Positions 1,622 to 16,429 of a DNA stretch of 64,000 bases are shown one piece after another. The number at the start of each line of letters is the position of its first letter. Positions within the stretch are counted from its first letter, which is position 1. Origin of the DNA: an uncultured Thiotrichales bacterium (GTDB taxonomy: Bacteria; Pseudomonadota; Gammaproteobacteria; HK1); NCBI GenBank assembly GCA_964610175.1, contig CAZSVE010000003.1:2193-66192 (forward strand), read 5' to 3'. A program made the translations under genes and the position numbers. The notes under the pieces were generated by a model. That model saw only the letters and a program-made list of their open reading frames with translations, was not told the origin of the DNA and did no database searches.

Positions 1622-2044
1622 ATGATGGGACAAGTCATTGCAGACATTACCCTGGAAAACTACTTCGATCGGGTATTGTCACAAGAAGATCGTCTGGCAG
1701 CGGAGGCTGTGCGTACCCATGAAACCCCCGCGCTGGTGGATAGCGGTGCCGTGATGCTGGCGCTGCCCCAGGACGTTACGGAAAAACTGGGGCTGAAACC
1801 GGTCCGCAAGGTGATCGTGACTTATGCCGATGAGCGCCGCGAGGAATGCGAGGTCATGGCACCCATCTATCTCACGGTGGCGGGGCGCTCCATGGTGACC
1901 GAAGCGGTTACGGGGCCACCGCTTAGCGAGGCCCTCATCGGACAGGTGATATTGGAGGAATTGGATCTGTTGGTGGATTGTCAACGCCAGATTCTGACAC
2001 CACGGCCGGAATCGCCGATCTATCCGTCGCTGAAGATGAAATGA
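1622..2044 (+). CDS. Retropepsin-like (clan AA) aspartyl protease family protein
   Basis: 140-aa ORF with a strong SD (AAGGAGG 6 nt upstream of the ATG). Contains the D-S-G-A motif (LVDSGAVMLALP) at the typical position for small bacterial retropepsin-like proteins. Confidence 0.55.
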   Translation: MMGQVIADITLENYFDRVLSQEDRLAAEAVRTHETPALVDSGAVMLALPQDVTEKLGLKPVRKVIVTYADERREECEVMAPIYLTVAGRSMVTEAVTGPPLSEALIGQVILEELDLLVDCQRQILTPRPESPIYPSLKMK

Positions 2045-2103
2045 AGATGGAGTGAGGTGGAGTGAGAAGAACCCGGAGAGATCGGCTCGAGGCCCTGCCG
2101 AGG

Positions 2104-3108
2104 ATGAAATCGATATCCCGCATTATCCTGGCGCGTATCGTCTTGGTGCTTGTCGCCCTTTTTTCATCGATGGTATTCGCTGACGACTACCAACCCGTGA
2201 AAATCGCGAGCGGTGGGCACGTGGTGCATTTCTTGCCGCTGGATATCGCCATTGCCCACGGCTTTTTCCAGGAACAGGGCCTGAGGCCGGAGGTGACTTA
2301 TCTCAGGGCGGGAACGCCCACGGCCCAGGCTCTGCTGGCGGGCCAGGTAGATTTCAGCACGAATGGCATCGAGCATGCGTTCAAGGCCGCTGTCCAAGGT
2401 AAGGATAATCTTCGCATGGTGGTGTTGATGAATCGCCTGCCGGGTATGGTTTTAGTGGTGGACGCCAGATACCGAGGCAAAGTGGAGGACGTTTCGGATC
2501 TGAAGGGCCTGACCCTGGGCGTAACCTCCAAGGGGGCGGGCACCCACATGGTGCTTGACTACCTGCTCGGCAAGAATGGCGTTTCTCCCCATGAGGTCAC
2601 GGTCATCAAGGCCGGGACATCCACTTTCCCGCCAGCCCTGCAGAATCGTCAGATCGATGGGGGCATGGCTCTGGAACCCTTTGCCTCCATGCTGGTGGAG
2701 AACGGAGATGCCTTCGTGCTTGCCGATCTGAATACCCTTGCCAATACCGAAAGGGTCTTCGGTGGTCCCTATAATCTGGCGGGAATCGTGACCCGTCAGG
2801 CGGTTATCGACGCGGACCCGGCCCTGGTCGGCAAGGTGGTGGCGGCAATCCGGAAAGCATTGCGCTGGATCGCGACCCATTCCCCCCGGGCTATTGCCGA
2901 TGCGCTTCCGACAATCGTGGTGGGCACCGATAAAGAGAGATATATCGAAACCCTGAAAAAACTAGCGGAATTCTATAGTGCGGATGGGCGTATTCTCCCG
3001 ATTGGCGTGGATAGCGTATTTCGTTCCATGCAATTCTCCGGTGCCCTGCCCAAAGATACACCCCTGGATCAGGGGCGCTTTTATACCAATCGGTTTATCG
3101 TGGATTGA
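2104..3108 (+). CDS. ABC-transporter-type periplasmic substrate-binding protein (NMT1/SsuA/TauA-like)
   Basis: Track ORF 2062..3108. The ATG at 2104 gives the signal peptide MKSISRIILARIVLVLVALFSSMVFA. The rest resembles nitrate/sulfonate/bicarbonate-family binding proteins. No cognate permease or ATPase lies nearby. Confidence 0.7.
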   Translation: MKSISRIILARIVLVLVALFSSMVFADDYQPVKIASGGHVVHFLPLDIAIAHGFFQEQGLRPEVTYLRAGTPTAQALLAGQVDFSTNGIEHAFKAAVQGKDNLRMVVLMNRLPGMVLVVDARYRGKVEDVSDLKGLTLGVTSKGAGTHMVLDYLLGKNGVSPHEVTVIKAGTSTFPPALQNRQIDGGMALEPFASMLVENGDAFVLADLNTLANTERVFGGPYNLAGIVTRQAVIDADPALVGKVVAAIRKALRWIATHSPRAIADALPTIVVGTDKERYIETLKKLAEFYSADGRILPIGVDSVFRSMQFSGALPKDTPLDQGRFYTNRFIVD

Positions 3109-3127
3109 CGGGGAAAGGGAATCACCC

Positions 3128-3886
3128 GTGCCGAAGATCATCCACATGACCGATCTTCATCTCGATGATTTCCCCGGAAATCTCCATGAAGTCGCCACGC
3201 GAATCGAAGGACTGCAAGCCGATATCTTTTTAATCGGCGGCGATAACGGCGGCGATGCGGGTATCGCGCGGATCATTCGTCTGGTGCGCGGGATCCATCC
3301 CAGGGCCGCGATAGCCTGGGTCATGGGAAATCACGACCTGTGGAACCGCACCATCGATCACCTATGGCGGGACTATTCCTGTCTCGACGCTTGCTATTTG
3401 GAGACCGGCAACCTGGAGGCCGAGACATGCACCGTGGTCGGGACTTACGGTCACTACGACCATAGCGGTGGCGATTCCGGTATCCGTCATGAAACATACG
3501 AGCAGTACCGCTTCGAGAATATGGGCTGGAACGACCGTTACATCATCCGCGGTCATCGGAGCAATCCGGAAATAGCCCGGGAAATCGCCGAACGTTTCGC
3601 CATCAGATATCGATGCGCCCTGGCTCGCGGGCTGCCGGTGATCGTCCTCATGCACACACTGGCATTTGCGGAACTGAACGCATGGGGGCGCAATTTCTAC
3701 GGTGCATACGGTACCAACAGCCTTATCGGCGACGAGATCTCGAAACACGACACCAAGCCAGTCGTGCTCTTCTGCGGTCACACCCACAATCCCATTCGCA
3801 TCGAGGCCTATGGTTTTCCCATGATCAACACGGGAAGCGATTACGAGCACGTGCGGATCACGGTGTTTCGATTCCAGAGCGCCTAG
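3128..3886 (+). CDS. Metallophosphoesterase (calcineurin-like)
   Basis: Motifs IIHMTDLHLD, GGDNGGD, GNHD and CGHTH. A GTG at 3128 in the track frame (2978..3886) gives the canonical N-terminus. The start is uncertain (ATG at 3146 is the alternative). Confidence 0.7.
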   Translation: MPKIIHMTDLHLDDFPGNLHEVATRIEGLQADIFLIGGDNGGDAGIARIIRLVRGIHPRAAIAWVMGNHDLWNRTIDHLWRDYSCLDACYLETGNLEAETCTVVGTYGHYDHSGGDSGIRHETYEQYRFENMGWNDRYIIRGHRSNPEIAREIAERFAIRYRCALARGLPVIVLMHTLAFAELNAWGRNFYGAYGTNSLIGDEISKHDTKPVVLFCGHTHNPIRIEAYGFPMINTGSDYEHVRITVFRFQSA

Positions 3887-3942
3887 TTTTTGTTTGTTTC
3901 CCGCTTATTTGCGAATGATGGGCGGGAAATAAACAAAATAAC
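3887..3942. repeat. F1 end-module fragments, head to head
   Basis: TTTTTGTTTGTTTCCCGCTTATTTGCGAATGA is the reverse-oriented F1 3' module. It is followed by GGGCGGGAAATAAACAAAATA, the forward F1 3' module. Confidence 0.7.
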
Positions 3943-4049
3943 AGAATCAGAACCCTTCGAAAAATGACCTATGGGTTTCGGGACACCGCATTTTTTACGT
4001 TGAAAGTCAAGACTCTTCAGAAACCAAAGTACGCTTTAGTCGGATGAGC

Positions 4050-4212
4050 CGAAATTTACCACTTCCGTCATTCCGGTAGGGAATGCCGGGACCCGGACGC
4101 CAGGGATGGCAAAAACTACCCGTGAATTTTCGTGAAATCACAATCGGTAAAACCCTTCGACCAACCACGAACATTCGCGCGGTCATGTCGATTGTCGAGG
4201 AGGAATTGCATA
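4050..4212 (+). repeat. Interspersed repeat family F4 (163 bp), copy a
   Basis: About 96% identical (by eye, ~6 mismatches) to the reverse complement of 35497..35659. Its 5' part holds the hairpin GTCATTCCGGTAGGGAATGCCGGGAC. Confidence 0.9.
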
Positions 4213-4266
4213 TCGGGAGGGGTTCGGATCCTCCACCCGTGGTGGAGAATCGAGGTGGTCGGGGTC

Positions 4267-4707
4267 TTATCCGAAGCAAAGACGTATTCGAAGCCGTCGA
4301 AATGCATCCGCATCCGTTACCATATCCGGAGTCAAGACAACCGGCTTGGCCAGGCGTTTCCCTGTATTGAAGTTCAGAACGACGAGATAGGGATGCACAT
4401 ATACGGAAGGCCATGGGCCCCAGGTGGGTTCCAGGTCTCCACTGATGACTTGACCACCCCGCGTCCATAGTTGCCATGCACCTTCCGCCGTCCACAATAG
4501 CGTTGTGATGGAAGATCGGGAACAGCGAAGAGTGTGTTCGCAAGCGCTGAAAAACATGCTGAACGTGATGGCGCCCCCAACGATAAGCTTCGTCGATAAC
4601 GCCAATTCGACAATTATCAAGCAACCGGCGGCACCTCCGTGGGCGAGAAAAACCAGTAATGTCGAATATGGGGACCGCTGTAATGTAAGTCGTATCGGTT
4701 GCAGCAT
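4267..4707 (-). CDS. CptA/YgfX-like inner-membrane protein
   Basis: 146 aa with two N-terminal hydrophobic helices. The C-terminal pattern (WQLW...YLVVLNF...TPDMVTDADAFRRLRIRL) matches the YgfX/CptA architecture recalled from E. coli and Pseudomonas homologues. Confidence 0.5.
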   Translation of the reverse strand: MLQPIRLTLQRSPYSTLLVFLAHGGAAGCLIIVELALSTKLIVGGAITFSMFFSACEHTLRCSRSSITTLLWTAEGAWQLWTRGGQVISGDLEPTWGPWPSVYVHPYLVVLNFNTGKRLAKPVVLTPDMVTDADAFRRLRIRLCFG

Positions 4708-4783
4708 TATCGTCTTCTACTTGGGGAACAAGGTTTTTTCATGATGCTTTGGTCTCATTGAACGATAAGCTTTCCATCTTGGA

Positions 4784-4992
4784 TTAGGCAACCGCGATTT
4801 CCTGAACACCGATAAACCTGGATTCCATCTCGGGTTCCCCATCTTCGAGCAGCATTTGGAGACCTCTTCGAGATTTCGCATCGATTCATCGAGCCTAACG
4901 CCTTGTGAGTGTGCACCTGGGAATCCGGGAATAAAGCCCACATAGAACCCTGTTTTCGGGCATTGCTCGATGACAGCGACGGAACCTCTCAT
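4784..4992 (-). pseudogene. HicB-like (UPF0150) antitoxin gene with a 1-nt frameshift
   Basis: The N-terminal half (MRGSVAVIEQCPKTGFYVGFIPGFPGAHSQGVRLDESMRNLEEV) is in one frame. The canonical C-terminus (LQMLLEDGEPEMESRFIGVQEIAVA, then stop) is in the adjacent frame. The shift is near 4855-4865. Confidence 0.55.
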
Positions 4993-4993
4993 A

Positions 4994-7912
4994 TCACGCA
5001 ATCCTTCTCACTTCCCCCTCTCCCTCCACATTCTCCACGCAGCGCCCGCAGAGTTCCGGGTGCTCGGTATTATTCACCCCGACGTCTTCCCGACGATGCC
5101 AGCAGCGGACGCATTTTTTGTGGGGGCTGGCGGTAACCCGCAGCCAGAACGGGGAACCGCTTGGCCCGGAGGTGTCCGTTACCGTGGCCACGGCATCGTT
5201 CGGGGATTGTTGCGCGGGATGGACGTTGGCCTCGGAGGTGATGAGCACGAAACGGAGTTCGTCTCCCAATTGGCGCAGATCGGTGAATAACGCACCGTCG
5301 CAGTAGATGTCCACTTGGGCATCCAGGGCCGAACCGATGACGCCAGCGGTACGGAGGCCCTCGAGTTCCCGATTGACGGCATCGCGCACGGCGATGATGC
5401 GTTCCCAGAATCGCGGGTCCTCCAGATCCTTTCCGTCGCCTTTCCCTGTATCACCCCCGGAGAGCGGCGCGAGATCGGTGTACCACTCGGCGAGGAAGAC
5501 GGAGGGTTCGCGCTTGCCGGGGAGGTGTTGCCAGATCTCCTCGCTGGTGAAGCTCAGGATGGGGGCGAGCCAGCGCACCAGGGCCTCGGCGATGTGGTAC
5601 AGGGCGGTCTGGGCGGAGCGGCGCGCCAGGCTGGCGGTTTTCGTGGTGTATTGGCGGTCCTTGATGATGTCGAGGTAAAGACTACCGAGGTCGACGGTGC
5701 AGAAGTTGTGGAGTTTTTGATAGACGATATGGAAATGGTTGTCCCGGTACGCGCTTTGGATATCGAGTTGCAATGTAGCGGTCCGGTGGACTACCCAACG
5801 GTCCAGGGCGAGCATTCGGTGGGGAGGGATGAGATCCCGATCCGGGTCGAAGCCGTGGAGGTTGGCGAGCAGGAAGCGCGCCGTGTTACGCAGCCGCCGG
5901 TAGGAGTCGGTCATGCGTTTCAGGATCTCGTCGGAGACGCTCATCTCGGCGCTGTAATCGGTGGCGGCCACCCATAGTCTCAGGATATCGGCGCCCAGTC
6001 GACTGACCACCTGTTGCGGGGCGATGACATTGCCACGGGATTTGGACATCTTCATGCCTTGGGCGTCGACGGTGAATCCGTGGGTGAGCACGGCGCGGTA
6101 AGGGGCGCCCCGGCCCATGGCGAGGGAGGCGAGCAGGGAGGATTGGAACCAGCCGCGGTGCTGATCGGAGCCTTCGAGATAGAGGTCGGCGGGGAAACCC
6201 AATTCGTCGCGTTGGGAGAGGACGGTGAATTGGGTAGCGCCGGAATCGAACCATACATCGAGGGTATCGCTGACCTTTTGGTAGTCCCGTGCATCGGCTC
6301 CGAGCAATTCTTCGGGGTCGAGATCGAACCAGGCATCGATGCCGCGTGTCTCGACGCGCCTGGCGACCTCGTCCAGTAAACGGACCGTATCCGGATGCGG
6401 AATGCCGGTTTCCTTGTGCACGAACAGGGTGATGGGTGTGCCCCAGCTGCGCTGGCGGGAGATGCACCAATCGGGGCGGTTTTCCACCATGCCGTGAATA
6501 CGCGCCGCGCCCCAGTCGGGTTGCCAGGTGACGGAGGAGATGGCGGAAAGGGCGTTTTTACGAAGGGTTGCCTTGTCGGCGCTGTCCGCGGTGCCGGATC
6601 CCATGCGGATGAACCACTGGGGCGTGGCCCGGAAGATGATGGGCGTTTTGTGCCGCCAGCAGTGGGGATAGCTGTGGTTTACGGTCTCGACGTGCATCAA
6701 GTGGCCGCTTTGTTCCAGGGCACCGATGATGAGGGAGTTGGCGTCCCAGACGTTTCGACCCTCGAGGAAGGGGGTTCCGGTGAGGAAGCGGCCATCGGGG
6801 CCCACGGGGTTGTCCACGGGGAGGTCATAGCGGTTGCCCACGACGTAGTCTTCCTGACCGTGGCCGGGTGCGGTGTGCACGGCGCCGGTTCCGGCCTCCA
6901 GGGTGACATGTTCGCCCAGGATCAAGGGCACCATGCGCGGGTAAAGGGGATGGTATAGCATGAGGCCTTCCAGCCGGAGGCCGGGACAGAATCCGCGCAC
7001 CTGGTATTTTTCGATGCCATAGCGAGCCATGGTGCCAATCAGGAGATCCTTGGCGAGCAACAGGCATTCTTCGCCCTGTTCGGTATCGATTTGTACCAAT
7101 ACGTAATCGAATTCGCCGTTCAAGGCCACGGCCTGGTTGGCGGGGAGTGTCCAGGGCGTGGTGGTCCAGATGAGGACCGAGATAGGCCCACGGGGGATTG
7201 TGTCCTGGTCCGCGTCTTGTTCGGTTTCGAGGCCGAATGCCCGCAGGAAGGCGGTCTCGTCCTGTACGGGGAAGCGGACATCGATGGCGGGGGATTGTCT
7301 GTCGTCGTATTCGACTTCGGCCTCGGCCAGGGCGGACCCGCAATCGATGCACCAGTGGACCGGTTTGAAACCCCGATCGAGGTGTCCCGTTTCTATCACT
7401 TTGCCGAGCGCCCGGATGATATTGGCCTCGATGGCAAAATCCATGGTGAGATAGGGATGTTCCCAGTCACCCAGGATGCCGAGTCGCATGAAGTCCTTGC
7501 GCTGTTTGTCTACTTGTTTGGTGGCGTATTCCCGGCATGCTTTGCGGAACGCGCTGGCATGGATCTTTTGACCGGCCTTGCCGACACGTTTCTCCACCTG
7601 GTGCTCGATGGGCAGGCCGTGACAGTCCCAGCCCGGTACATACGGGCAATCGAACCCATCCATTCCGCGTGCCTTCACGATGATGTCTTTGAGCACTTTG
7701 TTGACGGCATGACCGATATGGATATCGCCATTGGCGTAAGGGGGACCATCGTGCAGGATGTAGCGTTTTTTCCCGGCGCGCGCCCGGCGCAGTCGCTCGT
7801 ACAGGGAAAGTTCCTGCCAAAGGGCGAGAGTGGCAGGCTCGCGTCCGGCGAGATTGGCGCGCATGGGAAAACCGGTCTTGGGGAGGTTCAAGGTGTCTTT
7901 ATAGTCGCTCAT
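4994..7912 (-). CDS. ileS: Isoleucine--tRNA ligase
   Basis: 972 aa. HIGH motif ([13 protein letters not shown]), KMSKS motif ([10 protein letters not shown]) and a C-terminal Zn-finger (CVRCWH...CGRC). Confidence 0.97.
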
Positions 7913-8225
7913 CGGGATGAATTTCCTTTAGTGCCCATCTCCTCGAGACGCGGTAAACACCCAAGGGTTCGATGGGGTCTTATTTGGCGTGATTGCTGAT
8001 TTATTTGTTTTCCGCCCGGTCTGGTAAATGAGCCATGTTTTGCATGATGTCGATTTTCACCCGAATCCTCGAATCACGCTTTATCGGTTCGAGGAGAGGC
8101 TTTGCTGGCGTTTCGAAGGCCGTTGCGATATCCCGGGCGATGACCATGCCGGGATTCGGTTGTCTCGGGATGAATCGGGGGGTGGTCTTGCGTTGGACCT
8201 TGGCTGCAGTGGCGATTCCGTTCAG

Positions 8226-8313
8226 GTATCGGAAAAACAAGGATTCGAGGGAATCGGTGCATGCGCCAGGGGCCACCCCGCTTCAGTCCTGGCGCGAAGC
8301 GCTAGCATGTTCC
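8226..8313 (+). repeat. Interspersed repeat family F2, copy
   Basis: Reads GTATCGGAAAAACAAGGATTCGAGG...CCCGCTTCAGTCCTGGCGCGAAGCGCTAGCATGTT. Shares the F2 consensus with 12959, 26954 and 60131. Confidence 0.8.
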
Positions 8314-8325
8314 ATGGGTGCATTT

Positions 8326-8437
8326 CTAGCGAAGCTTATGCTCGGACCGACAACGCATGACCCCGTATCGGTAAAGCGGAATCGGTGTCTTGTAAAACTT
8401 GATTCCAATTGTGAAGTCGAGCGGGAAATAAACAAAA
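8326..8437 (+). repeat. F1, full-length copy
   Basis: Reads CTAGCGAAGCTTATGCTCGGACCGACAACGCATGACC...TTGTAAAACTTGATTCCAATTGTGAAGTCGAGCGGGAAATAAACAAAA. Confidence 0.85.
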
Positions 8438-8550
8438 TAAATAAGTATATTCAAATGATGATGATAAGCTTAAAATTCTTGCTTTAGCAATTTGCGGCGA
8501 GTCGATCGAACCGGCAGTCCGAGGTTTCCTTCGAGCGAGAGGACCGTTTC

Positions 8551-8640
8551 GGAACATGTTGGCGCTTTGCGCCAGGATTGAAGTGGGGTGGGCCCTGGCG
8601 CACGCACCGGGATTCTCGGAATCTTTGTTTTTCCGACACC
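8551..8640 (-). repeat. F2, inverted copy
   Basis: Its reverse complement reads GGTGTCGGAAAAACAAAGATTCCGAGAATCCC...CCTGGCGCAAAGCGCCAACATGTTCC. Confidence 0.8.
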
Positions 8641-8689
8641 TGAACAGAAAGCCGAAGTCTCCATAAAGCTTCCCCAGGAAGCCTGCCCC

Positions 8690-8770
8690 GAAACACCAAT
8701 ATCAAAACACGAATTTTGCTTTACCAATGCATGAATCATGCTTTGTCGATTCGAGTACAAGCTTCACTAG
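8690..8770 (-). repeat. F1, partial copy (5' and middle modules, reverse orientation)
   Basis: Reads ...TTTTGCTTTACCAATGCATGAATCATGCTTTGTCGATTCGAGTACAAGCTTCACTAG. Aligns to the reverse strand of F1 and lacks the GGGAAATAAACAAA end. Confidence 0.7.
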
Positions 8771-10495: not shown

Positions 10496-10653
10496 GATTA
10501 CACTCGTATTTCGGTTGGATTAACGAGGTGCGAACTATGCGTTTTTACGCCCTTTTTGTCAAATCGAATCGGGAAATACAACGCTCGGCGATGGCTTGCG
10601 CCGTTTCGGCCAATCGCTGGGTAAAGAGTCGATAATCGCACCATGCTCGTTAA

Positions 10654-10763
10654 TTTGTTTATTTCCTGCTCAGCTTCACCATTGGATCAAGTTTTGCAAG
10701 GCACCAATCTCGCTTTACCAATATCGGGTCATGTGTTGTCGGCTCGAGGCGAAGCTTCGCTAG
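10654..10763 (-). repeat. F1, full-length copy (first of a head-to-tail pair)
   Basis: Reads TTTGTTTATTTCCTGCTCAGCTTCACC...GGCTCGAGGCGAAGCTTCGCTAG, the reverse complement of the F1 consensus. Confidence 0.85.
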
Positions 10764-10870
10764 TCTGTTTATTTCCCGCTCATCTTCGCAAACGAGTCGC
10801 CATTTTACGAAACACCAGTTTTGCTTTACCGAATGCTAAATCATGTCGGTTCGAGCACAAGCTTGGCTAG
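10764..10870 (-). repeat. F1, full-length copy (second of the head-to-tail pair)
   Basis: Reads TCTGTTTATTTCCCGCTCATCTTCGC...GGTTCGAGCACAAGCTTGGCTAG. It directly abuts the previous copy. Confidence 0.85.
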
Positions 10871-10918: not shown

Positions 10919-11770
10919 CTACTCGATCTCCACCTCTCCGGTAAAGACGACCGCTGCCGGGCCGGTCATATAGACGTGGTTATCGATTTCAAGCCATTCG
11001 ATGCCGAGATCACCGCCCAGGAGTTTCACGGTAACCTTGCGGTCGGTGAGATCGTCCAGGATGGCGGCGACCGCCGTGGCGCAGGCACCGGTGCCGCAGG
11101 CCAGGGTTTCCCCCGAGCCGCGTTCCCAGACCCGCATCTGGATGGTGTCGCGGGAGATTATCCTGGCAAACTCGACATTGGTGCGGTTGGGGAAGTGGGG
11201 ATGGACTTCCAGTGCCTTGCCGTCTACCAATACCTGTTGGTCGGTGATCTCGTCGACGAAGATGACGGCGTGGGGATTGCCCATGGAGACGCAGGTCATT
11301 GCATAGTCGCGCCCGGCTCCCAGAGAGACCGAGGTCCTGGCTGGATTGGCGTCCACGGCAACGGGGATATCCGGCCCATCGAGGATGGGCTCGCCCATGT
11401 CGACGCGAACACTGCCGACCTTGCCATGATCGATGCCGAGCCCCAGGATCAGGGTACCGGCGCCGGTCTTGATGCGGAGGGTCTCGGAGGTGGCGTAGCC
11501 GCTTTCGTACAGGAACTTGCCGACGCAGCGGATGGCATTGCCGCACATCTCGGCCTCGGAGCCGTCGGCATTGAACATGCGCATGCCGAAGTCGGCGTCA
11601 TCATGGGGCAGGATGAGCACGATGCCATCTCCCCCGATACCGAAGTGCCGGTGGGAGAGCCTGATGGCGGTTCGGGAAGGGTTTGCGATGAGCCCGGGGT
11701 TTGCGATGCAATCGAAGTAGATGTAATCGTTGCCGAGGCCGTGCATTTTCGTGAAGGGGATAGCGCGCAT
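10919..11770 (-). CDS. dapF: Diaminopimelate epimerase
   Basis: 283 aa. N-terminus FTKMHGLGNDYIYFD. Both catalytic Cys motifs are present (MCGNAIRC and ACGTGACA). Confidence 0.93.
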   Translation of the reverse strand: MRAIPFTKMHGLGNDYIYFDCIANPGLIANPSRTAIRLSHRHFGIGGDGIVLILPHDDADFGMRMFNADGSEAEMCGNAIRCVGKFLYESGYATSETLRIKTGAGTLILGLGIDHGKVGSVRVDMGEPILDGPDIPVAVDANPARTSVSLGAGRDYAMTCVSMGNPHAVIFVDEITDQQVLVDGKALEVHPHFPNRTNVEFARIISRDTIQMRVWERGSGETLACGTGACATAVAAILDDLTDRKVTVKLLGGDLGIEWLEIDNHVYMTGPAAVVFTGEVEIE

Positions 11771-11850: not shown

Positions 11851-12471
11851 TCAGGTAATGACTTTTCGGGCGAGTTTTGCCAGTTTTGCTTTCTGCAAAA
11901 TGGAAAAGTGCGTATCGGCCACATAAAACAAACCGCTCAATGCATAAAAATCACGCTTCAAGTTTTCGGGTACGGCGCTTATTTCTTTATAGTCGAGGTA
12001 GTGGGATACCGATGCCCAGGCGTCTTGGGCGATGGTTCTTACCTGTATTTCGAATGGAGTGGAAGTTAATGCATCATTGGATTGGGCGTCGCTTTTCAGT
12101 CTGGCTTCGAGGTGTAGAGACATATAGCCAAAGATCTGCATTTCCGAAGCATTGACCTTGTCATCTTCTTCGAAGACATCGAATTCTTCTTTGATGATAT
12201 CGCTGATTTCATCCAGTTCGGAAAGGAAAAGACATACGATACGAAACCCAATCAGGTCATGGATTTGTTCGAATGGTTTACTGATTCCCTTTCTTTGGGC
12301 CTTATCGAGCAGTGAATCGATCTCTTCGATCCGCGAGGTCAGGGCATGTATTTTTATCCCGTGTCTTTCTATGGATTCATTTAGAATACGCTCGACCTCC
12401 CCGACTAATCGTCCATAATCACGCCGATTGGCATGATATTGTTCGATAATGGACCTTTTATCCATTTTCAT
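11851..12471 (-). CDS. RelA/SpoT-domain protein (small alarmone synthetase-like, stand-alone)
   Basis: 206 aa. Synthetase-fold motifs DLIGFRIVCLF (DxxGxR) and FEIQVRTIAQDAWASVSHYLDYK (EIQxRT..Q..WA...H...YK). The usual RxK reads SRIEEIDS. The region is visibly lower in GC than lysA and dapF. Confidence 0.8.
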   Translation of the reverse strand: MKMDKRSIIEQYHANRRDYGRLVGEVERILNESIERHGIKIHALTSRIEEIDSLLDKAQRKGISKPFEQIHDLIGFRIVCLFLSELDEISDIIKEEFDVFEEDDKVNASEMQIFGYMSLHLEARLKSDAQSNDALTSTPFEIQVRTIAQDAWASVSHYLDYKEISAVPENLKRDFYALSGLFYVADTHFSILQKAKLAKLARKVIT

Positions 12472-12812
12472 GATTCCAGGTCTTCCTTTTTTTTCCCTTT
12501 GATCAAAATTCCCATCTCAGGGATTTCTGGTATGCTCCCCGTCGCTCTAAAATCATATTTGTCCAACTTTCCATTTATTCTCAGTTGGAAATAATCGAGA
12601 TTGCCGAATACGGAAGTACTATTGATATCATATTTAATGATGATCAAATCGGCATCGATTTTATGATCGATAGCGTTGCATGTCCCGGAATAGTAATAAC
12701 CTGTATCCCCACCCAACGCGCGCCCATTGTTGACGACCAATACCCCTCTGCCATATCTGTTCATCGTTGTCTCAAACTCCACGGTCCATAATCCATTCAG
12801 CATATCGGACAT
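12468..12812 (-). CDS. GrlR-like small beta-barrel protein
   Basis: 114 aa. The pattern NGLWTVEFET...GRGVLVVNNGRALGGDTGYYYSG...DYFQLRI parallels EHEC GrlR (DGIYSIIF...GEGILIKNGNMITGGD...YQG...DYQLVI, recalled from memory). Its stop overlaps the downstream ATG (ATGA at 12468-12471). Confidence 0.6.
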   Translation of the reverse strand: MSDMLNGLWTVEFETTMNRYGRGVLVVNNGRALGGDTGYYYSGTCNAIDHKIDADLIIIKYDINSTSVFGNLDYFQLRINGKLDKYDFRATGSIPEIPEMGILIKGKKKEDLES

Positions 12813-12958
12813 ATCTATCTCCTTCAGGTTCGATTATTGGGTGGCATTACTGAAGTAATATGGCACATTGATTCGTTTATTTTCCGCTCATCTTCGCTAG
12901 ACGCCAGGCTCTCGGTGAACCCGTGAAAGGGAGGCAATCCGAGAATCCCGAGGATCGG

Positions 12959-13042
12959 GTATCGGGAAAACAGAGATCCCGAGAAAACCGATGCGCCAAG
13001 ACCCATCCCGCTTCGGTCTTGGCGCGAAGCGCCGACACGTTC
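12959..13042 (+). repeat. F2, copy
   Basis: Reads GTATCGGGAAAACAGAGATCCCGAGAAAACCGATGCGCCAAGACCCATCCCGCTTCGGTCTTGGCGCGAAGCGCCGACACGTT. Confidence 0.8.
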
Positions 13043-13048
13043 TCCTTT

Positions 13049-14308
13049 TCACGCCTGACCATTCGCGAATTCCCGGCTATCTTCGATGTCGGCCAGAGCC
13101 GACTCCGCAACAATCCGGTCCACGAGTTCTTCATTACCGAGTCTTCTCCGAACCAGCTGCAAGCTGCCCCGATACACCATGGCCTCCGCGGGCATGGGGC
13201 GCAGGTTGTAGACCCCCCCCATGCTGTAGCAATAGGCACCGGCGTTTTGGATGGCGAGGAGGTCGCCCTCGCGGATCTCGGGGATAGGGCGCTGCTCGGC
13301 GAAGCGGTCGCCGGTCTCGCAGATGTTGCCACAGACATCGTAACGATGGGGCCTGCCGTCGGGGTTGGTCAGGTTGACGATATGGTGATAGGCATCGTAC
13401 ATCACCGGGCGGATGAGCTGCGGGAAACCCGAGTTGCAACCCACGATGATGCGTTCATTATTGTGTTTGATGGTGTTGACTTCCACGATCAGGTAACCCG
13501 CCTCGGCGACCACGTACTTGCCGGGCTCGAAGCGCATTTCCAGCGCTGCACCGTATCCCTCGCAAAATGCCGTGAAGAGGCGGGTGATCTCCGCCCCCAT
13601 GGCCGGATAATCGACACGCCCCTCGTCCGGTCGATACGGGACCTTGAAGCCGCCGCCGAAATCCAGGAACTCCAGCGCCGGGAAGTTCCTTCTGGTGGCG
13701 ATGGTCATGAGGTTTTTCATGCTCTGGTACACCGATTCCGTCATGGTCAGCCCGGAACCGGTATGCTCGTGCAGGCCCACCACGGTGAGGCGGTATCGAT
13801 CCGTGATCTCCCTTACCCTGGCCACATCCTGGAGCAGGATACCGAATTTGGTCACATCGCCGCCGGTGCGCACCTTGGCATCCTCGCCATCCACCACATC
13901 CGGATTGAAGCGCAGGCACACCCGGGAACCGGGGAATTCGTCTCCGAATCGTGCCAGGCGCGACAGGGAATCGATATTGAGCAGGATGCCGGTGGCCTGG
14001 ATGGCGCGCACCTCGTCATCGGTCATGTTGTTGGCGGTATAGAGGATGCGCTCACGATCGAAGCCGAGACGCCTGGCGAGGAGCACCTCGGCGGGGCTCA
14101 CCGTATCCAGATGGGCGCCGATGTCGTTCAGGACCTTCAGGAGGCCGGGATTGTAGTTGGCCTTCATGGCGTAGTGGATCTCGAGCCTGGGCCAGGCAAT
14201 GAACCTCTGCAATTCCCGGTAGCGTTGCACCACCAGGTCGGCATCGTACAGATAAAGGGGCGTGCCGAATTCCCTGGCGGCTGCAATCAGTTCTTTTGTC
14301 GTCGGCAT
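13049..14308 (-). CDS. lysA: Diaminopimelate decarboxylase
   Basis: 419-aa PLP-dependent group IV decarboxylase. Motifs YAMKAN (PLP Lys), HEHTGSG, CGNICETGD and NAGAYC. It lies in dapF context. Confidence 0.88.
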   Translation of the reverse strand: MPTTKELIAAAREFGTPLYLYDADLVVQRYRELQRFIAWPRLEIHYAMKANYNPGLLKVLNDIGAHLDTVSPAEVLLARRLGFDRERILYTANNMTDDEVRAIQATGILLNIDSLSRLARFGDEFPGSRVCLRFNPDVVDGEDAKVRTGGDVTKFGILLQDVARVREITDRYRLTVVGLHEHTGSGLTMTESVYQSMKNLMTIATRRNFPALEFLDFGGGFKVPYRPDEGRVDYPAMGAEITRLFTAFCEGYGAALEMRFEPGKYVVAEAGYLIVEVNTIKHNNERIIVGCNSGFPQLIRPVMYDAYHHIVNLTNPDGRPHRYDVCGNICETGDRFAEQRPIPEIREGDLLAIQNAGAYCYSMGGVYNLRPMPAEAMVYRGSLQLVRRRLGNEELVDRIVAESALADIEDSREFANGQA

Positions 14309-14857: not shown

Positions 14858-16429
14858 TCATGGCCCCCGGCCATTCGGCTGCCCGGTCGGGCCCGATTCG
14901 GCAAGGGCCGCTTTTATCAGCGCGATCCACTCCCTTTGCTGCGCAGGCAGGCGGTCCTCCCCGGCGAGCGGCTCCAGGATGTCCAGGGCCTCGCGGAGCC
15001 ACCCCGCCCGTTGCGCCTTGTCTGTCTCCAGGATAGCCATCTTCGAAAGGCTTACCACCACATCGGTCTTCCACTCGACCCTCATGGGATCGAGCTCCGT
15101 GAGCCTCTCCCGGATCGACAACCCGTCCTGGTAGGCGGCGAGGGCCTTGGCGCCGTCGCCATTGGCTTTGTGCATGTCCCCTACCTTGTTGTGGCTCACC
15201 GAGAGGTTGCGCTGCCACTCGCTGTTTCCGGGGTCGAGCTCCGTGAGTTTTTCCCGAATCGACAACCCGTCCTGGTAGGCGGCGAGGGCCTTGGGCCCGT
15301 CGCCATTGGCGACGTGCATGTCCCCTACACGGTCGAAGCTCACCGAGAGGTCGCGCTGCCACTCGCTGTTTCCGGGGTCGAGCTCGGTGAGCTTTTCCCG
15401 AATCGACAACCCGTCCTGGTAGGCGGCGAGGGCCTTGGCGCCGTCGCCATTGGCGACGTGCATGTCCCCTACACGGTCGAAGCTCACCGAGAGGTCGCGC
15501 TGCCACTCGCTGTTTCCGGGGTCGAGCTCGGTGAGCTTTTCCCGAATCGACAACCCGTCCTGGTAGGCGGCGAGGGCCTTGGCGCCGTCGCCATTGGCTT
15601 TGTGCATGTCCCCTATCTTGTTATGGCTCACCGAGAGGTTGCGCTGCCGTTGCGGGTCATCGGGTTTCTGTTTGGCCCATCGCTTGAACAATGATCGGGC
15701 CTGTTGGTAGCGATCCAATGCGGCGCCGCTCTCGCCACGCAGGGCATCGATGTCGCCCAACTCGAGATGCGCAATGGCCTGCCAGTGTATCTGTCCTTTC
15801 CTTTCGGCGCGCCCCATGAGTTCCCGGGATGCGCGCAACGCCTCGTTGGAATCCCCGGCGCGCCGGGCGACACGCCCCAGATCGAGCCAGCCCTCCAGGG
15901 CCTCCGGATCGAGCACCACCGCCTCTCGGTAGCTCTCCAACGCCTTTCCGGTGTCGTGGAGATACACGAAGGCCCCCAGATGACGCGCCGTGGCGGCGGC
16001 CTCCCGCAGGGCATTGCGCCCGGCGAGCCTCTGGCTTTCCAGGTGGCGGCGCAATATGTCCTCTGCCCGAGCGGTGTCGCCTTTCTCGAGGAGGGAGATC
16101 GCCTCCTGGACGGCTGCCGCCTTCTCCGGCTCGGTTCGTTCGATGCGATACAGCGCATCGACGGCGGCCAATACCCGCCCTCGTTCCTCCTCCGGCATGT
16201 CACCGAGGGCATCGATGATCTCGCCCTTGGTGATTTCCTCGTTCCGAGTTTGCCGCGTGGCCCGGCTCTTCCGATAGGTGAATATCCCCCATCCGATGGA
16301 GAACAGGACGCCGATGGACGTCACGGAGAATACCAGTATTTGCAGATTGTCCCCTGTGAACAGGTTGGTCATGAGGCCGATGAGTCGATTATCCATGAAA
16401 GCTTGAACAAAATGGTCGAAAAATGTCAT
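14858..16429 (-). CDS. Tetratricopeptide-repeat protein with an N-terminal membrane anchor
   Basis: 523 aa. One TM helix (ILVFSVTSIGVLFSIGWGIF), then TPR-like repeats including four near-identical 48-aa units. The ATG at 16429 lies inside an F3 repeat arm, so the true start may be M12 or M20. Confidence 0.8.
   Translation of the reverse strand: MTFFDHFVQAFMDNRLIGLMTNLFTGDNLQILVFSVTSIGVLFSIGWGIFTYRKSRATRQTRNEEITKGEIIDALGDMPEEERGRVLAAVDALYRIERTEPEKAAAVQEAISLLEKGDTARAEDILRRHLESQRLAGRNALREAAATARHLGAFVYLHDTGKALESYREAVVLDPEALEGWLDLGRVARRAGDSNEALRASRELMGRAERKGQIHWQAIAHLELGDIDALRGESGAALDRYQQARSLFKRWAKQKPDDPQRQRNLSVSHNKIGDMHKANGDGAKALAAYQDGLSIREKLTELDPGNSEWQRDLSVSFDRVGDMHVANGDGAKALAAYQDGLSIREKLTELDPGNSEWQRDLSVSFDRVGDMHVANGDGPKALAAYQDGLSIREKLTELDPGNSEWQRNLSVSHNKVGDMHKANGDGAKALAAYQDGLSIRERLTELDPMRVEWKTDVVVSLSKMAILETDKAQRAGWLREALDILEPLAGEDRLPAQQREWIALIKAALAESGPTGQPNGRGP
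15086..15661. repeat. Intragenic tandem repeat, 4 x 144 bp
   Basis: Unit starts at 15086, 15230, 15374 and 15518 (exact 144-bp spacing read from the GGGGTCGAGCTC landmarks). The middle two units differ at only ~3-4 positions. Confidence 0.9.

Follow-up and report, generated by a model that had tools for sequence, protein, structure and literature searches.

What is a foreign, AT-rich island doing inside a conserved pair of lysine-biosynthesis genes, and what do its two genes encode? We examined this question in a stretch of 64,000 nucleotides of DNA from an uncultured Thiotrichales bacterium (hereafter, the window), in which two overlapping genes lie on the same strand between lysA and dapF (Table 1). 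The upstream gene encodes a small protein that resembles the β-barrel regulator GrlR, and the downstream gene encodes a stand-alone RelA/SpoT-type enzyme, that is, a small alarmone synthetase (SAS). The first-pass annotation, made from the sequence alone, proposed that this cassette had been inserted between lysA and dapF and that it might be a new toxin–antitoxin (TA) or abortive-infection pair of the toxic SAS (toxSAS) type. Here we report that the cassette is an old insertion of a two-gene unit that recurs across phyla. We favor, with moderate confidence, the view that this unit is a self-contained, horizontally spread conflict module of the TA or abortive-infection type with an inhibitory partner.

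Both open reading frames (ORFs) were present between lysA and dapF as annotated, with the ATGA overlap between the stop codon of the first and the start codon of the second. The G+C content of the cassette was 0.43, compared with 0.584 for a 10-kb flank, which agrees with the lower value that had been estimated by eye; in the profile of the window, it was 0.37–0.44 over positions 11900–12800 vs 0.60–0.65 in the flanks. Both ORFs are real genes, because each has hundreds of homologs (853 were found for the SAS) and because dN/dS relative to a sister strain was 0.07 for the GrlR-like gene and 0.16 for the SAS gene (0.21 for dapF). Promoter, terminator and RNA-family signals were searched for around the cassette, and none was above chance.

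The recurrence of the pair was tested from both sides. When one genome per GTDB species was scanned using the SAS as a seed (32 loci returned), each of the 14 intact short SAS genes (~200–225 aa) was immediately preceded on its strand by an intact GrlR-like ORF. When metagenomes were scanned with an alignment of 18 GrlR-like sequences, 80 loci were returned, 77 of them with room downstream, and a SAS gene directly followed the GrlR-like gene at 73 of these 77 loci (~95%). The spacing between the two genes was mostly −4 to +9 nt across the family. The pairing of the SAS with the GrlR-like gene is therefore non-random, and the expectation that GrlR-like genes would recur beside this SAS clade was borne out. 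Further, all-against-all BLAST of the neighbors at ~90 loci revealed no third conserved gene near the pair, and the conservation of neighbors amounted to lineage-level synteny only (at most 11 of the ~90 loci). We are almost certain that the two genes constitute a conserved functional module. The SAS gene thus shares with toxSAS genes the trait of being tightly coupled to a small partner within a conserved two-gene operon.

The upstream protein scored 26.5 bits (E = 7.7e-6) against the Pfam family GrlR (PF16518), 0.3 bits under the cut-off of 26.8. Its close homologs P0125–P0127 carry a precomputed PF16518 match, and the family profile matched GrlR in the PDB with E = 0.003. The AlphaFold2 (AF2) model (pLDDT 91.3) showed an eight-stranded barrel, and Foldseek matched this model to the GrlR structures 2ovs (TM score 0.83) and 4kt5 (0.79–0.81), followed by designed and lipocalin-type barrels. 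The resemblance to the GrlR fold that the first-pass annotation had noticed was thus confirmed at the level of structure. The protein is ~21% identical to GrlR.

GrlR is a dimeric β-barrel that inhibits GrlA through direct binding, for which the surface motif EDED (residues 46–49) is required (PMC1868957). This motif is missing in the window protein, in which the aligned residues are D-H-K-I-D (D-N-K-I-N in the family consensus). No GrlA-type helix-turn-helix gene or locus of enterocyte effacement (LEE) context was detected near the GrlR-like gene, the neighbors of which are lysA and the SAS gene. Because the EDED motif is missing and there is no GrlA-like gene nearby, the protein is a remote relative within the GrlR fold family and not a GrlR ortholog. 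No homology to the domains known to counteract toxSASs (pZFD/PAD1/D27, Panacea, SAH and Tis1) was detected, GrlR being the only Pfam match. Two large proteins, P0149 (4189 aa) and P0174 (1707 aa), contain 9 and 11 separate stretches, respectively, that matched the GrlR-like profile; these could be tandem barrel repeats or spurious matches to repetitive β-strands.

The downstream protein scored 80.9 bits against the Pfam family RelA_SpoT (PF04607; cut-off 27), and the synthetase fold and motifs that had been listed for it are present. It comprises 206 aa without an additional domain. Its closest solved relatives are RelQ and RelP, with E ~1e-16 and 24–28% identity in a single-sequence search; the family profile matched RelQ/RelP in the PDB with E = 1e-22, compared with 2.5e-5 for CapRel and 0.02 for FaRel2. 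Similarly, the top Foldseek matches of the AF2 model (pLDDT 82.9) were 5dec, 6ex0 and 6fgk (E = 5e-12 to 1e-11), and the TM scores were 0.65–0.75 to RelQ/RelP and then ~0.6 to CapRel. The score on the NCBIfam RelQ equivalog NF053588 was 70.3 bits, far under the cut-off of 320, so that the SAS is not a RelQ ortholog. Nor did the family profile place it in the validated toxic subfamilies FaRel, FaRel2, PhRel, PhRel2 and CapRel. The family carries its own C-terminal motif, D-F-x-A-L-S-G-L-F-Y-V-A-D-T-H-F.

The toxSASs that target tRNA are basic, whereas the SAS family described here is mostly acidic (isoelectric point ~5.5–6.7). Placing the SAS among the tRNA-modifying toxSASs, which the first-pass annotation had considered, is unsupported, because the protein is far nearer to the non-toxic RelQ/RelP and mostly acidic. 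Thus, of the proposal of a new toxSAS pair, the conserved and coupled module with a GrlR-fold partner stood, but the kinship to validated toxSASs did not.

The catalytic motifs of the SAS are D72-x-x-G-x-R77, E141-I-Q-V-R-T, Q149, W152-A153, H157 and Y161-K162, and R47-I-E49 replaces R-x-K. In FaRel2, the triphosphate of ATP is held by R64, K66, S70, K74 and R77, of which K66 coordinates the α and β phosphates, and Mg2+ is held by D90 (PMC11782079). When this spacing was transferred to the SAS, the corresponding residues were R47, E49, S53, K57, R60 and D72. The full catalytic set (R-x-K-x3-S-x3-K-x2-R, the Mg Asp, the G-loop Tyr and E-x-Q-x-R-T) is therefore broken at one position, where Glu49 stands instead of Lys; R47, S53, K57, R60, D72, Y116 and E141 are present. 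The Tyr equivalent to Y116 is essential in all toxSASs tested (PMC7229694) and also in Pag1B (bioRxiv 10.64898/2026.04.06.716658).

Position 49 was Lys in 194 of 194 other short members of the SAS family, and Glu49 was found only in this strain and its 95% identical twin. The R-I-E sequence that the first-pass annotation had pointed out is thus real but is not a trait of the family. As Lys is invariant in the 194 others, K49E, judged from the alignment, reverses the charge at a residue in contact with the ATP phosphates, and does so in this lineage only; it probably lowers the activity of the SAS in this genome. The sole further deviation from the ≥90% family consensus was D85E. K49E is a natural active-site variant and could serve to probe whether activity and toxicity are the same thing.

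We compared the lysA–dapF junction among relatives of the host. A database protein with 100% identity identifies the host as Candidatus Kentrum sp. LFY, a ciliate symbiont. The sister strain (L034) encodes a 95% identical SAS in the same order, lysA-pair-dapF-rpsT. A 76% identical SAS lies directly before dapF in Kentrum sp. FW (L036), the dapF of which is 80% identical. In Kentron sp. G (L130/L131), dapF directly follows lysA at a distance of 141 nt, and in another relative (L127/L128) the distance is 32 nt; no remnant of either cassette gene was detected at these two junctions. Because these junctions are empty and the cassette is common to LFY and FW, we conclude that it was inserted into an ancestral lysA–dapF junction in an ancestor shared by the LFY and FW lineages. 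The first-pass annotation was therefore right about the insertion, and the converse case that it had named, in which the order lysA-pair-dapF is ancestral, does not hold. This history explains the foreign AT-rich island in this genome.

The synonymous divergence (dS) between the window and FW was 0.97 for the cassette and 0.64 for dapF; these values are of similar magnitude and consistent with vertical inheritance of the cassette since its insertion. The insertion is thus old, since LFY and FW share the cassette and it diverged along with dapF. In FW, the SAS gene is missing its first ~28 codons and borders on unrelated sequence where the contig ends. The 105 nt upstream of this copy (L036, positions 1–108) code for the C terminus of an unrelated ORF product (ending in KAYGFRTYHGIEIALYHALGNLPVPKSTHKFF before the stop codon), which had no Pfam match and no copy in the window and may be the tail of a transposase. 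On a further contig associated with Kentrum, a pair with 70% identity occupies a different site.

Two further observations were made at these junctions. The nucleotide identity between the window and the sister strain was uneven (lysA, 99.7%; dapF and the GrlR-like gene, 97.4%; SAS gene, 95.5%), which suggests recombination or differing selective histories over ~3 kb. In FW, genes for TIR/SEFIR, AAA_5 and caspase-like (Peptidase_C14) proteins (L036, positions 1975–5645) lie 3' of dapF, where the window has rpsT; they look like a defense-type cluster beside the same junction.

The hosts found in the SAS-seeded scan included Nitrospirae, Delta-, Gamma- and Betaproteobacteria, Planctomycetes, Bacteroidota, Chlorobium and Bathyarchaeia, and the flanking genes of the pair varied among genomes. 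Other TA genes (HicB and PIN) often lay near the pair. The cassette was poorer in G+C than its flanks at 45 of 46 loci, with a mean difference of 0.11 and a maximum of 0.34. Low G+C content is thus a property of the whole family of this mobile module and no sign of recent arrival in the window.

The closest relatives of the SAS are long single-gene forms (315–363 aa) with a C-terminal extension of ~130 aa. The SAS-seeded scan contained 12 of them, one frameshifted; they lack a GrlR-like gene, and one lies between an integrase gene and an AlpA-like gene in Paraburkholderia. Further long forms were found on an IMG/VR viral contig, beside a holin gene in a Mycobacterium abscessus prophage and in a filamentous phage (inovirus) of Vibrio, and a match to the phage protein family phrog_9640 (PHROG; E = 1.8e-35) was obtained alongside these phage-borne forms. 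The extension had no relative in Pfam or the PDB, and homology to the GrlR-like protein was rejected (hhalign probability 0.1%). In a neighbor-joining tree, all 68 short forms grouped together with a bootstrap value of only 26%, and the long forms were basal or sister to them, unresolved at the base; a clean division between long and short forms is therefore unsupported.

GrlR-like genes also occurred without the SAS. At three loci (L105, L115 and L119), the GrlR-like gene is followed by genes for a Cys4 zinc-ribbon protein (~90–100 aa) and a membrane protein (~135–165 aa), and the GrlR-like proteins are 36–40% identical to that of the window. This suggests that the barrel protein is a module shared among different effectors. 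Orphan GrlR-like genes were found in two phages and in conjugative plasmids, in accessory-gene hotspots: between lysis genes and the terminase gene, beside rulAB-like genes, and beside ParB-N and DUF3440 genes. The window protein itself matched phrog_2483 (E = 8.5e-11).

How might such a module work? In the reading that we favor, the SAS would be the effector and would move pyrophosphate from ATP to an acceptor. This acceptor would more likely be a purine nucleotide than tRNA, yielding (p)ppGpp- or (p)ppApp-type products and draining nucleoside triphosphate (NTP) pools. Alarmone synthesis with NTP depletion is favored over modification of tRNA because the SAS resembles RelQ/RelP, is mostly acidic and has a precedent in PANGU, a system in which a toxSAS makes pppGpp (bioRxiv 10.64898/2026.04.06.716658). 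The GrlR-fold barrel would bind the SAS directly and keep it off until a trigger arrives, acting as an antitoxin or sensor by analogy with GrlR as a protein-binding inhibitor. We infer that the two proteins interact and that the SAS is toxic, and likewise which way the regulation runs, what the substrate is and any role in phage defense. In this genome, the cassette entered the lysA–dapF junction in an ancestor of LFY and FW, and K49E followed in the LFY lineage, probably attenuating the activity.

We favor an antitoxin-like role of the partner because it comes first and is coupled to the SAS, because GrlR inhibits by binding, and because of the parallel between split and fused forms and the asymmetry of decay. 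The split (two-gene) and fused (long single-gene) forms mirror the bicistronic toxSASs and the fused CapRel, respectively. The GrlR-like gene was intact and the SAS gene disrupted or a remnant at 10 loci; the reverse was observed at 1 locus (size-corrected binomial p ~0.06). Effector swapping, in which related GrlR-like genes occur with a zinc-ribbon and a membrane protein, supports the view of a module, and so does the damage to the enzyme in both sister lineages, by K49E in LFY and by the loss of ~28 N-terminal codons in FW. Also in favor of a conflict module are the near-obligate pairing, the mobile, accessory character of the cassette, the empty junctions in relatives and the long forms on phages and islands.

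Several results weigh against a conflict module with an inhibitory partner. The synthetase (SYNTH) domain is far closer to that of the non-toxic RelQ/RelP (E = 1e-22; TM ~0.7) than to that of CapRel or FaRel2. The asymmetry of decay (10 vs 1) is marginal and rests on metagenome assemblies, and at locus L116 the SAS is intact and the GrlR-like ORF truncated (73 of 109 profile positions), which may contradict the antitoxin model or reflect a faulty assembly. Many copies of the pair lie among housekeeping genes, outside recognizable defense islands, and the short two-gene form was absent from the viral contigs and GenBank phages that were searched. Among known defense-system models, PADLOC returned only a weak, partial match of the SAS to the candidate system PDC-S33 (profile positions 36–176 of 349, 48.8 bits; short of full length), as it did for the long relatives, and no match for the GrlR-like partner. 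Purifying selection on both genes in this genome argues against plain decay. Finally, the partner in PANGU activates an enzyme that is harmless alone, so that an antitoxin is not the sole option.

This last point leads to the strongest alternative, which we nevertheless consider unlikely: the pair is a sensor-activated alarmone synthetase, possibly used in defense, and not a TA pair. The SAS would be inert alone, and the barrel would sense a trigger (for example, a protein of a phage or a small hydrophobic ligand held in its cavity) and switch the SAS on, in the way that the nucleoid-associated protein Pag1A turns on Pag1B, the GRel enzyme of PANGU. There, a small partner activates a toxSAS that is non-toxic alone and makes pppGpp (bioRxiv 10.64898/2026.04.06.716658). 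The SAS is like the alarmone-making RelQ/RelP and acidic like nucleotide-using enzymes, the internal hydrophobic cavity of GrlR bound a ligand in the crystal (PMC1868957), GrlR-like genes, like PANGU sensors, occur coupled to alternative effectors, and L116 retains an intact SAS beside a truncated partner. However, the upstream position of the partner and the stop/start overlap match the arrangement usual in type II TA systems, in which the antitoxin comes first (NetFlax paper), GrlR itself is an inhibitor, and the activator model does not predict that the SAS decays ~10 times more often than its partner.

A second alternative, to which we assign a somewhat lower probability still, concerns this genome: the cassette is a catalytically dead relic, in which K49E abolished ATP binding and which is kept by inertia or for a non-enzymatic role. 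The invariance of K49 in 194 others, the contact of the equivalent residue with ATP phosphates in FaRel2 and the lack of the 5' end in the FW copy are in line with this explanation. Yet the dN/dS values of the two genes, which were obtained between two strains that both carry E49, are as low as that of dapF, all other catalytic residues are intact, and a single change from Lys to Glu may lower activity rather than abolish it.

It is improbable that the SAS is an ordinary stress-signaling enzyme of the RelQ/RelP/RelV type with a regulatory subunit, tuning (p)ppGpp for host physiology without a role in conflict, since, although it matches RelQ and RelP best in both sequence and fold, many copies lie amid housekeeping genes and both genes are under purifying selection in Kentrum, its RelQ equivalog score is only 70 bits against a cut-off of 320, the spread is patchy and cross-phylum (including archaea) with constant AT-richness, varied contexts and empty sister sites, disrupted copies are frequent, the closest relatives lie on prophages and genomic islands, and the loss of the invariant ATP-binding Lys is unexpected in a housekeeping enzyme.

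More broadly, and only as a tentative proposal, GrlR-fold barrels may be a new class of partner that controls SASs and other effectors, among them the zinc-ribbon and membrane proteins, in a modular immune or addiction system extending from Proteobacteria to Bathyarchaeia. The barrel would be a trigger-sensing switch for growth arrest by alarmones, and the orphan GrlR-like genes of phages and plasmids might be counter-measures by which these mobile elements neutralize such effectors.

The coordinates of the features are given in Table 1. The repeat on the lysA side of the cassette, which the first-pass annotation had remarked on, exists but is a neighbor of the module and lies outside it. Copies of the repeat families (D2 and D3) were also found at positions 8261–8312, 10647–10677 and 10757–10787 (within ~8216–8750 and ~10647–10850), in direct and inverted orientation with 77–90% identity, in several intergenic spacers of the window. 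The repeat is therefore not cassette-specific, and we ruled it out as a scar of the insertion; the dispersed family resembles a MITE-type element of this genome. Elsewhere in the window, positions 14858–16429 (minus strand) encode a 523-aa TPR-type protein with several near-identical internal repeat blocks (ALAAYQDGLSIREKLTELDPGNSEWQRDLSVS...), and the region around it is GC-rich with many long shadow ORFs on the opposite strand.

Table 1. Positions of the cassette, its flanking genes and predicted active-site codons in the window, and of related loci elsewhere.
Feature	Sequence	Position	Strand	Basis or remark
GrlR-like gene (114 aa), upstream gene of the cassette; GrlR-fold β-barrel protein	window	12468-12812	-	ORF, Pfam, AF2 model
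SAS gene (206 aa), downstream gene of the cassette; RelA/SpoT SYNTH domain	window	11851-12471	-	Pfam
ATGA stop/start overlap, 4 nt; translational coupling	window	12468-12471	-	read off the sequence
Shine-Dalgarno AGGAG, 6 nt 5' of the GrlR-like ATG	window	12819-12823	-	read off the sequence
lysA (diaminopimelate decarboxylase), upstream flank	window	13049-14308	-	Pfam Orn_Arg_deC_N and Orn_DAP_Arg_deC
dapF (diaminopimelate epimerase), downstream flank	window	10919-11770	-	Pfam DAP_epimerase, 214.8 bits
Dispersed intergenic repeat copy, spacer between lysA and the GrlR-like gene	window	12865-13042	.	neighbor of the module, outside it
Codon 49 (GAA, Glu), lineage-specific K49E in the R-x-K ATP-phosphate-binding motif	window	12325-12327	-	alignment; matches FaRel2 K66
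Codon 72 (Asp), predicted Mg2+-coordinating catalytic Asp of D-x-x-G-x-R	window	12256-12258	-	family-invariant; equivalent to FaRel2 D90
Codon 116 (Tyr), predicted G-loop Tyr stacking on the acceptor base	window	12124-12126	-	family-invariant
Codon 141 (Glu) of the E-I-Q-V-R-T catalytic motif	window	12049-12051	-	family-invariant; aligns with EIQIRT of RelP/RelQ
Intact SAS with truncated GrlR-like ORF	L116	506-1474
GrlR-like gene, then zinc-ribbon and membrane protein genes, no SAS	L105	499-1614
GrlR-like gene, then zinc-ribbon and membrane protein genes, no SAS	L115	1964-2980
GrlR-like gene, then zinc-ribbon and membrane protein genes, no SAS	L119	2558-3642
Long SAS form	L134	2947-3966		Mycobacterium prophage prophi68-1 gp42
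Long SAS form	L135	3938-4948		Vibrio inovirus
Long SAS form	L039	5920-6972		among temperate-phage and integrase/AlpA-island carriers
Long SAS form	L020	5887-6963		among temperate-phage and integrase/AlpA-island carriers
Orphan GrlR-like gene	L132	3001-3321		Escherichia phage SKA5
Orphan GrlR-like gene	L133	2953-3324		Vibrio phage Pm34
Orphan GrlR-like genes	L136-L138			Pseudomonas and Salmonella plasmids

SASs that act as toxins or in phage defense are a recent and fast-growing topic, and each new type of partner has revealed a different kind of control: blocking of either the ATP site or the acceptor site, hydrolysis of the product or activation by a released nucleoid protein. To our knowledge, work on GrlR-type proteins has been confined to their role in regulating type III secretion in attaching-effacing E. 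coli. The partners described for SASs in the cited papers are the pseudo-Zn-finger/PAD1/D27, Panacea, SAH and Tis1 domains and the PANGU nucleoid protein (PMC7229694; PMC11782079; NetFlax paper; bioRxiv 10.64898/2026.04.06.716658). Among the papers searched, none named both toxSAS and GrlR or linked GrlR-type proteins to SASs, and none referred to GrlR-like or GrlR-family proteins, in agreement with the first-pass annotation, which knew of no GrlR-fold partner. If RelP/RelQ-like enzymes are controlled by a GrlR fold in hundreds of bacteria from the environment as well as in some archaea, this would be the first general function for the wider GrlR family. It would also add a toxSAS branch near the housekeeping enzymes, bearing on how toxic SASs evolved from non-toxic ones.

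The module resembles the toxSAS TA systems (FaRel, FaRel2, PhRel, PhRel2 and CapRel; Jimmy et al. 2020, PMC7229694) in its stand-alone synthetase with a small non-enzymatic partner, its coupled two-gene operon, its wide and patchy distribution and its fused single-gene relatives on prophages. It differs from them in that the SAS is far from the validated subfamilies (E = 2.5e-5 for CapRel and 0.02 for FaRel2 vs 1e-22 for RelQ) and the partner is a GrlR barrel rather than a pseudo-Zn-finger/PAD1, Panacea, SAH or Tis1 domain; the toxicity of the SAS is putative. As in CapRel(SJ46), a fused toxSAS whose C-terminal domain serves as antitoxin and sensor, the long relatives of the SAS are single genes with an added C-terminal domain on prophages and islands. 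However, this domain showed no similarity to known domains or to the GrlR-like protein, the sequence similarity to CapRel is weak, and the window carries the short two-gene form. Compared with GrlR, the LEE negative regulator of enterohemorrhagic and enteropathogenic E. coli, the partner shares the eight-stranded barrel and the signature G-x-G...G-G-D...Y-x-G, but it differs in sequence, in the EDED motif and in genetic context. A possible parallel is that GrlR binds and inhibits a partner protein, which in our module would be an enzyme.

PANGU type I (Pag1A with Pag1B/GRel; bioRxiv 10.64898/2026.04.06.716658) is a defense module that is likewise bicistronic, with a small non-enzymatic partner and an alarmone-synthesizing SAS, and its partner family also couples to alternative effectors, including membrane proteins. 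In contrast to our β-barrel, the PANGU partner is a DNA-clamping nucleoid protein; further, the C-terminal DNA-mimic domain of Pag1B has no counterpart in the short SAS, and PANGU is shown to work by activation, whereas control by inhibition is proposed here. The housekeeping SASs RelQ and RelP (YjbM/YwaC) are the best match in sequence and fold, with the same catalytic motifs and a similar size. Unlike them, the SAS falls under the equivalog cut-off, has a near-obligate upstream partner and its own C-terminal motif, and behaves as part of a mobile cassette. Thus, the cassette between lysA and dapF is best regarded as a toxSAS-like bicistronic module that combines a new partner fold with an SAS clade that, among solved structures, lies near the housekeeping enzymes.

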